Shown here: positions 5,099-8,432 of the stretch, piece after piece | Position numbering within the stretch: the stretch's first letter is position 1 | Layout: each line of letters opens with the position of its first letter | Source of the DNA: Escherichia coli | GTDB taxonomy: Bacteria > Pseudomonadota > Gammaproteobacteria > Enterobacterales > Enterobacteriaceae | Assembly: GCF_051903065.1 (NCBI RefSeq) | Contig: NZ_CP178438.1 | Length of the DNA: 64,000 nt | Direction: 5' to 3' (one strand) | Made by a program: the position numbers and the translations under genes | The notes under the pieces: model-generated | Database searches by the model: none | The model's input: the letters and a program-made list of their open reading frames with translations, nothing else | Told to the model about the DNA's origin: nothing

Positions 5099-6193
5099 TT
5101 ACATTGTGGTTTTCAATGCGTTATCCGCAGCGTGACGCTCCAGCGCCAGCTCAATCAAACGTGTGATCAGATCGGTGTAACCCAGACCGCTGGCTTGCCA
5201 CAGCTTCGGATACATACTGATGTTGGTGAAGCCAGGCAGTGTGTTGATCTCGTTGATCACCACTTCGTTCTCTGGGGTTAAAAACACGTCTACACGTGCC
5301 ATGCCTGCGCATCCCAACGTCTGATAAGCTTGAACGGCAATCGCCCGGATCTTATCGTTGATTTCTGGCGCAATGGCTGCCGGAACTACCACTTTCGCGC
5401 CATCTTCGTCAATGTACTTGGTGTCGTAGGCATAGAAATCGCTGGTGAGTACGATCTCACCACAGGTGCTGGCTTGCGGATTGTCGTTGCCCAGAACTGC
5501 GCATTCGATCTCACGACCTTTGATCCCTTGCTCAACGATCACTTTATGATCGAACTCGAACGCCAGATCGACGGCAATTGCGTACTGTTCTTCACTGGTT
5601 ACTTTGCTGACACCAACAGAAGAGCCCTGATTAGCCGGTTTTACAAACAGTGGTAACCCCAGTTTAGACTCCACTTCGGCAAAACTAATGTTGTGACGAT
5701 TAGCGCGCGTCAGGGTAATAAATGGCGCAATGTTCAGCCCGGCATCGCGTAGCAGACGTTTGGTGACATCTTTGTCCATACAGGCTGCTGAAGCCAGAAC
5801 ATCAGAACCTACAAACGGTAAATTGGCGACCCGCAGCATTCCCTGCAAGGAACCATCTTCGCCCAGCGTACCGTGGACAATCGGGAAAATGACATCCACC
5901 GTCGGCAACGGCTGACCGTTTTGCGCGTCGATAAGCTGATGCTCATGTTTACCTGGCACCTGGGCGAGGCTGGTCGCCGAAGGGCGCAACGCAATATGGG
6001 CAGGATCGTCTGCATTTAGCAGATAATTGCTGGCATCGCTGACGTGCCATTGCCCTTGTTTATCAATGCCCAGCAGCACAACGTCGAAGCGACTTTTATC
6101 AATGGCATCGACAATGTTTTTTGCCGATTGCAGAGACACTTCATGTTCCGCTGATTTACCACCAAAAACGATTCCTACCCGCAGTTTTTCCAT
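5099..6193 (-). CDS. ddlA: D-alanine--D-alanine ligase A
   Basis: 364-aa ORF, ATP-grasp Ddl sequence recognised ([33 protein letters not shown]). Confidence 0.95.
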
Positions 6194-6655
6194 CTTAAAA
6201 ACCTATCCCGTCTAACACAAAGTGCATACATTACCACGACAAAACGGGGGATTCGCGGCCTTCTGAAAGATTGTTGCAATCTTCTGCTGACAAAGCGTGC
6301 AACGTACTGGTGAAGAAAGTGCGTTATCTCAAAGATGTGCGCAAGATCACAAAAATGATGAACGGGAAGCTAATTTATTCCTGGCTTAAATGGCCATGCG
6401 GTGAGTTTTTTTCTCTTAATTATAAGTTAACGAAGAGAATATATTTCATAACTTTTATTTATAATAAAGGTTGATAATTAAAAGCCTATATTTTGTGTGG
6501 ATAATTATTTAAATAAGAGAAACGTTTCGCTGGTAATCAAACAAAAAATATTTGCGCAAAGTATTTCCTTTGTCATAAAAATAATACTTCCAGACACTAT
6601 GAAGTTGTGAAACATAATGTTAACTTCTCCATACTTTGGATAAGGAAATACAGAC

Positions 6656-6916
6656 ATGAAAAATCTCATTGCTGAGTTGTTATTTAAGCTTGCCCAAAAA
6701 GAAGAAGAGTCGAAAGAACTGTGTGCGCAGGTAGAAGCTTTGGAGATTATCGTCACTGCAATGCTTCGCAATATGGCGCAAAATGACCAACAACGGTTGA
6801 TTGATCAGGTAGAGGGGGCGCTGTACGAGGTAAAGCCCGATGCCAGCATTCCTGACGACGATACGGAGCTGCTGCGCGATTACGTAAAGAAGTTATTGAA
6901 GCATCCTCGTCAGTAA
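6656..6916 (+). CDS. iraP: Anti-adaptor protein IraP (RpoS stabiliser)
   Basis: 86-aa [35 protein letters not shown]...; preceded by a long AT-rich leader. Confidence 0.85.
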
Positions 6917-6936
6917 AAAGTTAATCTTTTCAACAG

Positions 6937-6956
6937 CTGTCATAAAGTTGTCACGG
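6937..6956 (+). promoter_or_regulatory. Pho box (PhoB binding site) of the phoA promoter
   Basis: ctgtcataaagttgtcacgg matches the Pho-box direct-repeat consensus CTGTCAT-N4-CTGTCAC; a -10-like tatagt follows at 6965-6970. Confidence 0.75.
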
Positions 6957-7016
6957 CCGAGACTTATAGTCGCTTTGTTTTTATTTTTTAATGTATTTGT
7001 ACATGGAGAAAATAAA

Positions 7017-8432
7017 GTGAAACAAAGCACTATTGCACTGGCACTCTTACCGTTACTGTTTACCCCTGTGACAAAAGCCCGGACACCAGAAATGCCTGTT
7101 CTGGAAAACCGGGCTGCTCAGGGCGATATTACTGCACCCGGCGGTGCTCGCCGCTTAACGGCTGATCAGACCGCCGCTCTGCGTGATTCTCTTAGCGATA
7201 AACCTGCAAAAAATATTATTTTGCTGATTGGTGATGGGATGGGGGACTCGGAAATTACTGCCGCACGCAATTATGCCGAAGGTGCGGGCGGCTTTTTTAA
7301 AGGTATCGATGCCTTACCGCTTACCGGGCAATACACTCACTATGCGCTGAATAAAAAAACCGGCAAACCGGACTACGTCACCGACTCGGCTGCATCAGCA
7401 ACCGCCTGGTCAACCGGTGTCAAAACCTATAACGGCGCGCTGGGCGTCGATATTCACGAAAAAGATCACCCAACGATTCTGGAAATGGCAAAAGCCGCAG
7501 GTCTGGCGACCGGTAACGTTTCTACCGCAGAGTTGCAGGATGCCACGCCCGCTGCGCTGGTGGCGCATGTGACCTCGCGCAAATGCTACGGTCCGGGCGC
7601 GACCAGTGAAAAATGTCCGGGTAACGCTCTGGAAAAAGGCGGAAAAGGATCGATTACCGAACAGTTACTTAACGCTCGTGCCGACGTTACGCTTGGCGGT
7701 GGCGCAAAAACCTTTGCTGAAACGGCAACCGCAGGTGAATGGCAGGGAAAAACGCTGCGTGAACAGGCACAGGCGCGTGGTTATCAGTTGGTGAGCGATG
7801 CTGCCTCACTGAATTCGGTGACGGAAGCGAATCAGCAAAAACCCCTGCTTGGCCTGTTTGCTGACGGCAATATGCCAGTGCGCTGGCTAGGACCGAAAGC
7901 AACGTATCACGGTAATATTGATAAGCCCGCAGTCACCTGTACGCCTAATCCGCAACGTAATGACAGTGTACCGACCCTGGCACAGATGACCGACAAAGCC
8001 ATTGAATTGTTGAGTAAAAATGAGAAAGGCTTTTTCCTGCAAGTTGAAGGTGCGTCAATCGATAAACAGGATCATGCTGCGAATCCTTGTGGGCAAATTG
8101 GCGAGACGGTCGATCTCGATGAAGCCGTACAACGGGCGCTGGAATTCGCCAAAAAGGATGGTAACACGTTGGTCATAGTCACCGCTGATCACGCCCACGC
8201 CAGCCAGATTGTTGCGCCGGATACCAAAGCTCCGGGCCTCACCCAGGCGCTAAATACCAAAGATGGCGCAGTGATGGTGATGAGTTACGGGAACTCCGAA
8301 GAGGATTCACAAGAACATACCGGCAGTCAGTTGCGTATTGCGGCGTATGGCCCGCATGCCGCCAATGTCGTTGGACTGACCGACCAGACCGATCTCTTCT
8401 ACACCATGAAAGCCGCTCTGGGGCTGAAATAA
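7017..8432 (+). CDS. phoA: Alkaline phosphatase PhoA (471-aa precursor, GTG start)
   Basis: Recognised signal peptide [21 protein letters not shown]; the ORF-track ATG at 6948 lies inside the Pho box, so the in-frame GTG at 7017 is the likely start. Confidence 0.95.

Follow-up and report, generated by a model that had tools for sequence, protein, structure and literature searches.

The promoter of iraP is reportedly activated by ppGpp and DksA (Bougdour & Gottesman, 2007; Girard et al., 2018), and this activation would act on a core promoter with an AT-rich discriminator. To our knowledge, neither an RbsR-like operator nor an origin of the upstream DNA by gene loss forms part of the descriptions of this ppGpp/DksA-dependent promoter. 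The promoter has been used in RT-qPCR work (PMC10191844). A second line of research concerns RbsR in Salmonella, where rbsR and iraP insertions came out of one screen and deletion of either gene lowers the level of RpoS protein while rpoS transcription stays the same (Wenner et al., 2024; PMC10965054). RbsR was found not to act on rpoS transcription in Salmonella and the mechanism was left open (PMC10965054), and a rival account proposes that rbsD mRNA lowers RpoS translation (preprint, reference 83 of PMC10965054). Genomic SELEX of RbsR has reported five sites (PMC4797297). A full-text literature search combining RbsR and iraP turned up no paper that makes a direct connection between the two. 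As far as we know, iraP is not among the published RbsR SELEX targets.

In the present study, the DNA between ddlA and iraP of Escherichia coli was analysed as part of a 64-kb stretch, referred to as a whole as the window, in which a coordinate equals that of MG1655 (NC_000913.3) minus 394730. ddlA occupies 5099-6193 on the minus strand and iraP 6656-6916 on the plus strand, with phoA next after iraP, and the two genes are separated by a divergent intergenic gap of exactly 462 bp at 6194-6655. This gap is most probably a composite divergent promoter region enlarged by the loss of genes, not a long leader of iraP. Overall it is an ordinary region of a known kind, i.e., a divergent promoter region with putative transcription-factor sites, and its size is probably a by-product of gene loss. 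What is new here is the proposed gene-loss history, an orphan CRP site under constraint, an ORF that is likely mis-annotated and an apparently undescribed candidate RbsR-like operator at the iraP promoter.

Transcription starts and coding potential of the gap

The region 6194-6655 is found in 5422 of the 5426 complete E. coli genomes, nearly always with at least 95% identity, and has an overall GC content of 0.34. The first-pass annotation had described about 460 bp as unusually long, AT-rich and free of a convincing ORF, and this description holds. Among the 10 divergent gene pairs found in 50 kb of K-12 annotation around the locus, admittedly a small sample, the ddlA-iraP spacer is the longest, the others measuring 92-351 bp. 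The two long A/T tracts that had been singled out, 6421-6480 and 6541-6600, have a GC content of 0.17 and 0.27, respectively, and 6404-6553 (GC 0.207) represents the lowest-GC 150 bp of the window, only a fraction of 8e-5 of all 150-bp windows being equally low.

The starts of iraP transcription have been mapped in three independent published datasets. 5'RACE placed a start of iraP (yaiB) at -24, with the -10 element GTTAACTT (PMC2760140 supplement). Cappable-seq reported strong plus-strand starts at U00096.2 positions 400543 (score 298) and 400587 (score 168) (PMC4782308), which convert to 6589 and 6633 in the window, about -67 and -23 from the iraP ATG, and SMRT-Cappable-seq reported starts of an iraP-phoA transcript at 401318 and 401362 in the forward direction (PMC6131387), i.e., 6588 and 6632, or 68 and 24 nt before the ATG. 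On the opposite strand, the start of ddlA (b0381), which comes from SMRT-Cappable-seq only, was placed at 400951 reverse (PMC6131387 supplement file 4), corresponding to 6221. No plus-strand start between yaiZ and 6588 was reported in Cappable-seq (PMC4782308), and the DNA separating the divergent starts 6221 and 6588, roughly 366 bp, is not known to be transcribed, in published start-site datasets that cover few growth conditions.

Around these starts, the promoter elements and the ribosome-binding site can be assigned from the sequence. The 28-nt 5' untranslated region of ddlA (6194-6221, minus strand) is preceded by an extended -10 element, TGgTAATGT, at 6228-6236 on the minus strand, 7 nt upstream of the mapped start. 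This element falls within the block 6194-6265, which has 88% invariant columns across Escherichia and for which homologous DNA lies next to ddlA in Salmonella, Citrobacter, Enterobacter and Kosakonia. The distal iraP promoter (6552-6588, plus strand), which initiates at 6588 and yields a 68-nt leader, would consist of a -35-like TTGCGC (6552-6557) and a -10-like TAAAAAT (6576-6582) at a spacing of 18 bp, followed by an AT-rich discriminator; its ATAAAAATAnTAC is kept across genera, and the fraction of invariant columns within Escherichia is 0.79. The proximal iraP promoter (6618-6632, plus strand) has the extended -10 element TGtTAACTT (6618-6626) and a start at 6632, seen by 5'RACE, Cappable-seq and SMRT-Cappable-seq, which gives a 24-nt leader, and the block 6610-6655 reaches 96% invariant columns in Escherichia. 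The ribosome-binding site AAGGAAA and the ATG at 6656 lie within 6642-6658 on the plus strand, and the surrounding TAAGGAAAT is conserved in 19 genera. Starts on both strands, correctly placed -10 elements and conserved promoter blocks are all present, as in a divergent sigma-70 promoter region. A scan of the region with the promoter consensus gave 4 matches against 2.0 expected, one alone (CAGACA/CATAAT) lying near a mapped start, and a terminator scan of 6194-6655 gave none. Footprinting of the iraP-proximal piece, both within Escherichia and across 19 genera, revealed four blocks: besides the distal and proximal promoters and the ribosome-binding site, a palindrome at 6514-6534. From this observed conservation, we infer that the DNA controlling iraP is concentrated in the last ~145 bp of the gap.

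The first-pass annotation had regarded the region as a leader of iraP that could hold a regulatory RNA structure, and neither part of this proposal is supported. Only 68 of the 462 nt are transcribed together with iraP, from the starts at 6588 and 6632. A scan of 5900-7100 against Rfam 15 at E <= 10 returned only chance-level matches to eukaryotic miRNA and lncRNA families, far below their gathering scores. The real 68-nt leader with the early coding sequence folds no better than shuffled sequences (z = -0.44), and RNAalifold on 10 species predicted no base pair in the iraP leader and found 0 compensatory changes. It might still be argued that most of the 462 bp is a long 5' leader with a riboswitch, an attenuator or an sRNA target operating in phosphate starvation, since a relative does make such a leader, the 218-nt PhoP-dependent transcript of Salmonella (PMC3335776 Table 1), and since the fold of the larger stretch 6380-6660 is somewhat more stable than that of shuffled sequences (z = -2.24), although this stretch is not known to be transcribed. 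However, the E. coli starts lie at -24 and -68 with none farther upstream on the plus strand in Cappable-seq, the structural searches gave no Rfam family and no covariation, the region has no PhoP box (none was found at up to 2 mismatches), and its upstream part is poorly conserved except for blocks that resemble protein-binding sites. A long leader is thus very improbable, and largely refuted for the growth conditions sampled. The finding that had been named as refuting the proposal, a start immediately upstream of iraP together with no regulatory role of the distal DNA, has been made only by half: the starts are indeed there, yet conserved regulatory-looking DNA lies farther upstream, and the remark that the gap exceeds what a simple promoter needs is to that extent justified.

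The only coding feature annotated in the gap is a 67-aa 'hypothetical protein' with a TTG start, placed by PGAP at 6271-6474 on the plus strand. Were it a real small protein, the region would be partly coding, and its accession, WP_001300163.1, is indeed carried in most of the ~5400 E. coli genomes, e.g., NZ_AP045789. Against this stand the TTG start, the lack of any family match in Pfam and NCBIfam, and the absence of an entry in the curated K-12 record. Moreover, stops or frameshifts interrupt the frame in each of the six other Escherichia lineages examined, its substitutions are spread evenly over the codon positions (e.g., 21/18/16) with no third-position bias, no plus-strand start has been found upstream of it by Cappable-seq, and its sole conserved segment is the CRP block discussed below. 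We consider a functional protein hardly credible here; the 67-aa hypothetical protein, listed for thousands of E. coli genomes, very likely reflects an artefact of annotation, and 6271-6474 was judged not to be a gene. A leader peptide at the conserved ATGATGAACGGG (MMNGK...), which has no Shine-Dalgarno sequence before it and abuts a CRP half-site, was also considered and set aside.

Probable gene loss and the pieces of the gap

The comparison of iraP loci from 80 species points to an origin of the gap's size in gene loss, and not in a hidden RNA element. A ddlA-iraP distance of 450-464 bp occurs only in Escherichia, and one of ~600 bp in one Citrobacter group; elsewhere, the two genes are separated by 1.6-2.4 kb or ddlA lies beyond the 2.5-kb flank. 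The genes that intervene in relatives, which are present in ~60 of the 80 species, encode an extensin-like protein (PF06904) and a transporter of the MFS class that resembles MdtG, scoring 543 bits with the MdtG model. Intermediate states exist as well, with the extensin-like gene alone kept in C. amalonaticus and the MFS gene alone in Cedecea and some others. Protein-level remnants of the two genes were searched for in the Escherichia and Citrobacter spacers and none was significant, C. amalonaticus being the case in which the extensin-like gene itself is kept.

Segments of the E. coli spacer were compared with the loci of all 80 species by sensitive blastn, and its parts matched different places of the longer arrangement. 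The counterpart of 6194-6275 lies next to ddlA in many genera, that of 6347-6373 immediately before the MFS gene in Salmonella and Citrobacter, and that of 6517-6650 (6442-6651 in C. koseri) next to iraP. The order in the common ancestor of these enteric bacteria would therefore have been ddlA, the extensin-like gene, the MdtG-like transporter gene and iraP. Escherichia would have lost the two genes in the middle, and the non-coding DNA around them would have been fused into one gap. That the genes were lost and not gained is a parsimony inference from the gene orders compared. The gap would then be long because three ancestral intergenic pieces were joined when the two middle genes disappeared: the ddlA core promoter with its 5' untranslated region (6194 to ~6298), a ~55-bp relic of the CRP-dependent promoter of the transporter gene (6333-6385), and the ancestral upstream region of iraP (~6442-6655), the remaining ~110 bp presumably being lineage-specific filler, much of it AT-rich. 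About one third of the region is ddlA promoter or relic of a lost gene, and not DNA that controls iraP.

The middle piece contains a CRP site, agaTGTGCgcaagaTCACAaa, at 6333-6353 (centre 6343.5), which was predicted in 2009 (PMC2760140 supplement file 6). Its core, TGTGC-GCAAGA-TCACA at 6336-6351, agrees with TGTGA-N6-TCACA at 9 of the 10 core bases. CRP has been shown to bind it in vitro with a Kd of 1.2 nM by Footprint-seq, in which it counts as a novel site of high affinity and is assigned to 'ddlA / iraP' (PMC12871828 Table 1, 2026 preprint). In Salmonella, Citrobacter and Enterobacter, homologous TGTGA-N6-TCACA sites directly precede the MdtG-like MFS gene, and in these relatives a conserved TGTGA-N6-TCACAAAaATGATGAACGGGaAGaTAAAAT block with the geometry of a class II CRP promoter precedes the gene. 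Next to the E. coli site, on the plus strand at 6355-6385, a conserved ATGATGAACGGGAAG with a -10-like TAATTT (6371-6376) aligns at equal spacing with the ...ATGATGAACGGGaAGaTAAAAT of the relatives. The -10 position reads TAATTT in E. coli, GAATTT in some Escherichia and TAAAAT in the relatives. The whole block 6333-6385 is thus a probable relic of the class II CRP promoter of the lost transporter gene. Within Escherichia, 74% of its positions are invariant against 24% in the flanks (Fisher p = 1e-7), compared with 57% at the third codon positions of iraP, and, as far as the alignment tells, the CRP site is still constrained after the loss of the gene.

The constraint raises the question of whether the orphan site and its TAATTT still work as a promoter, firing rightward from ~6383 into iraP as a third, conditional promoter with a ~270-nt AT-rich leader, or whether the site regulates ddlA. 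The tight binding in vitro and the conservation of the block long after the loss of the transporter are compatible with such activity; so is the fact that conservation stops about where the start site would lie, and the published start-site maps come from few conditions. Nevertheless, no start has been reported at 6355-6385 or near 6383 by Cappable-seq or SMRT-Cappable-seq, the -10 is degraded relative to the TAAAAT of relatives, and the distances of the CRP site from the mapped starts, -122.5 for ddlA and -244.5 for the distal start of iraP, correspond neither to a class I or class II position nor to a standard position for activation. A further argument against it is physiological, as IraP is not known to be required for the stabilisation of RpoS on carbon starvation. 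Both forms of continued activity are therefore improbable in our view, and the relic of a lost promoter is the reading that we retain. The orphan CRP site provides a clear case of a transcription-factor site that outlives its gene under constraint, a point to be considered when genome-wide binding maps report 'novel intergenic' sites.

Between the relic and the conserved iraP promoter lies a very AT-rich spacer (6386-6513), with weak homology outside Escherichia, limited to C. koseri and beginning at 6442. Its first part, 6386-6441, has a GC content of 0.30 and no homology outside Escherichia. At the positions from -130 to -214, the GC content is 0.15-0.23 in Escherichia and at least 0.29 in most other genera, a few genomes having 0.23-0.26; AT-richness of this extreme degree is confined to Escherichia. 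This restriction, together with the position of the lowest-GC 150 bp of the window in this DNA and the moderate conservation of the sub-block 6414-6470 (67% invariant within Escherichia), would suit a platform at ~6386-6560 for nucleoid-associated proteins such as H-NS, Fis and IHF, silencing or shaping iraP and/or ddlA; such a platform could coexist with a composite promoter. On the other hand, the helical phasing of the A-tracts, a sign of curved DNA, is not significant (p = 0.18), and the neutral decay of non-functional enteric DNA also yields AT-richness. The Ira proteins reportedly controlled by H-NS are IraD and IraM, not IraP (Battesti et al., 2012). A role of the spacer as a nucleoid-protein platform is less likely than not, though by no means remote. 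The same spacer contains a predicted NagC-type site at 6487-6509 on the minus strand, known from the FITBAR benchmark (PMC3098098 Table 2), which differs by one base in the window from the K-12 site. It is probably not functional, the stretch 6471-6509 being poorly conserved (49% invariant in Escherichia).

A palindrome upstream of the distal iraP promoter

The palindrome TAAGAGAAACGTTTCGCTGGT at 6514-6534, with the core GAAACGTTTC at 6519-6528, resembles the operators of the LacI family. Among these, it is closest to TCAGCGAAACGTTTCGCTGAT upstream of rbsD in MG1655, which we take to be the RbsR operator and with which it shares 18 of 21 bases; the right half-site, CGTTTCGCTG, is identical to that of rbsD over 10 bases, and the left half-site has two mismatches. 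The core occurs once in 64 kb. In Escherichia, 80% of the palindrome is invariant against 42% of its flanks, and ~60 of the 80 species carry the motif ahead of iraP at a nearly constant spacing, with 129-133 nt from its centre to the iraP ATG and 51-54 nt to the distal -10. In a subset of species, these distances are 116-121 nt and 38-42 nt, respectively, and thus about one helical turn shorter. Because the two classes differ by about one turn, a factor that acts in a face-of-helix-dependent manner is suggested, i.e., one that would need to occupy a fixed side of the DNA with respect to RNA polymerase, at around -64.5, the position of the palindrome centre relative to the distal iraP start in E. 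coli. The operators of LacI-family regulators resemble each other in general, and with the degenerate left half-site of the iraP palindrome another member of the family could bind as well.

We tentatively propose that RbsR, or a close paralogue, binds the palindrome and modulates the distal iraP promoter in a face-of-helix-dependent manner, most likely by activating it. In its specific form, in which ribose-free RbsR directly activates this promoter from -64.5 through 6514-6534, the proposal is a serious possibility, although we would not call it probable. An alternative would be another regulator of the LacI family (PurR, Cra or MalI) or an unrelated factor, in which case the effect of RbsR on RpoS would have nothing to do with iraP. 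The central AAACGTTT is common to the operators of PurR, Cra and MalI, the left half-site departs from the rbsD operator and varies by genus (GAGAAAC, GAAAAAC, GCAAAAC), and for the rbsR phenotype an explanation through rbsD mRNA has been published. What speaks for RbsR instead is the identity of the right half-site with the rbsD operator, the match at the positions that distinguish RbsR (AGCGAAAC, as opposed to GCTGAAAC for Cra and CGCAAAC for PurR), and the phenotype shared by rbsR and iraP mutants in one screen. Binding by a different factor thus seems unlikely, if by no means far-fetched, and RbsR remains our preferred candidate.

If RbsR does act in this way, the availability of ribose would lower IraP and speed the degradation of RpoS, which would offer a direct mechanism for the lower RpoS of Salmonella rbsR mutants, whose phenotype on succinate is that of iraP mutants (PMC10965054). 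Such control would also add a carbon-source input to an anti-adaptor known for its response to phosphate (ppGpp) and, in Salmonella, magnesium (PhoP) signals. The RbsR-like operator therefore represents a concrete and cheaply testable lead on how RbsR raises RpoS levels.

Comparison with described promoters and operators

The described system that is most directly comparable is the iraP promoter of E. coli itself, as activated by ppGpp/DksA, and its description (summarised in PMC4415409) agrees with the starts at -24 and -68 and with the AT-rich stretch that separates the -10 from the start. The Salmonella iraP promoter (Tu et al., 2006; Zwir et al., 2012) serves the orthologous gene and shares both promoter motifs and the RbsR-like palindrome. 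It differs in its PhoP boxes and its 218-nt leader, whereas E. coli has neither a PhoP box nor a mapped far-upstream start, and in its upstream neighbour, which is the MFS transporter gene in Salmonella and ddlA in E. coli.

Class II CRP promoters, in which CRP is positioned near -41.5, find their counterpart in the relatives of E. coli, where the CRP site lies ~39.5-41.5 bp upstream of the start expected from the TAAAAT -10; the E. coli copy, in contrast, has no gene left to serve, a weakened -10 and no mapped start. Finally, the palindrome at iraP resembles the RbsR operator reported for the rbsDACBK operon (Mauzy & Hermodson, 1992) in being centred on CG, in 18 of its 21 bases and in an identical right half, but the two differ in position, as the operator at rbsD lies just upstream of the start codon and represses, whereas the candidate at iraP is centred at -64.5, a position more typical of activators.

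A conserved block beside the CRP half-site and an annotated reading frame

Directly 3' of the CRP half-site lies a short block, ATGATGAACGGG(A/G)AG (window 6355-6369), which is nearly invariant from Escherichia through Enterobacter and can be followed in the iraP loci fetched from other species (L014, about 880-900; L019; L026). This block is conserved beyond the needs of a promoter spacer, and it could be either the site for a second factor or a leader peptide. In Salmonella, C. sedlakii and Enterobacter a mini-ORF of 7-8 codons (MMNGKIK*-like) is readable in the block and precedes the MdtG-like transporter gene; no Shine-Dalgarno sequence is visible ahead of this mini-ORF.

A larger frame on the + strand (window 6271-6474, TTG start, 67 aa) is annotated by PGAP in most complete E. 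coli genomes as the 'hypothetical protein' WP_001300163.1, and it has no counterpart in the curated K-12 record. The frame is interrupted in every other Escherichia lineage checked, and WP_001300163.1 is therefore likely to be a systematic over-annotation.

Promoter spacing and sequence variation

The distance from the RbsR-like palindrome to the distal iraP -10 falls into two classes, being 38-42 nt in E. albertii (L008, about 2380-2400) and several other genera, compared with 51-54 nt; short spacing is found at loci L057, L058, L061, L070-L073, L076 and L079 as well. The two classes differ by about 10-15 bp, approximately one helical turn. Across the 462 bp between ddlA and iraP, the window differs from MG1655 by one single base, inside a FITBAR-predicted NagC-type site (window 6487-6509) that reads GGATAATT in the window and GGGTAATT in K-12. 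Elsewhere in the 64-kb window, a GC content of 0.26 or below in 150-bp windows is reached only at 32848-33041, 46989-47542 and 58204-58477.

Transcription from iraP into phoA

Transcripts from both iraP start sites (window 6588-8432) are listed by SMRT-Cappable-seq as b0382|b0383, that is, iraP and phoA, and they therefore pass the iraP stop and continue into phoA, which also has its own start at 401706 (window 6976). Several weak + strand starts with scores of 2-9 occur in Cappable-seq inside the iraP coding sequence (6696 and further positions) and in the iraP-phoA spacer upstream of phoA (6935, 6955 and 6999).

Probable gene loss in Citrobacter

In Citrobacter amalonaticus (L012, 1791-2500) the MFS gene is missing, the CRP block is still present alongside the extensin-like gene, and about 640 bp of non-coding DNA lies ahead of iraP. 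The Citrobacter sp. NCU1 group (L009-L011, about 1900-2500) is without both genes, and its spacer is roughly 600 bp, with phoA downstream as in E. coli. C. amalonaticus and the NCU1 group probably represent intermediate stages of the same gene loss as in Escherichia.
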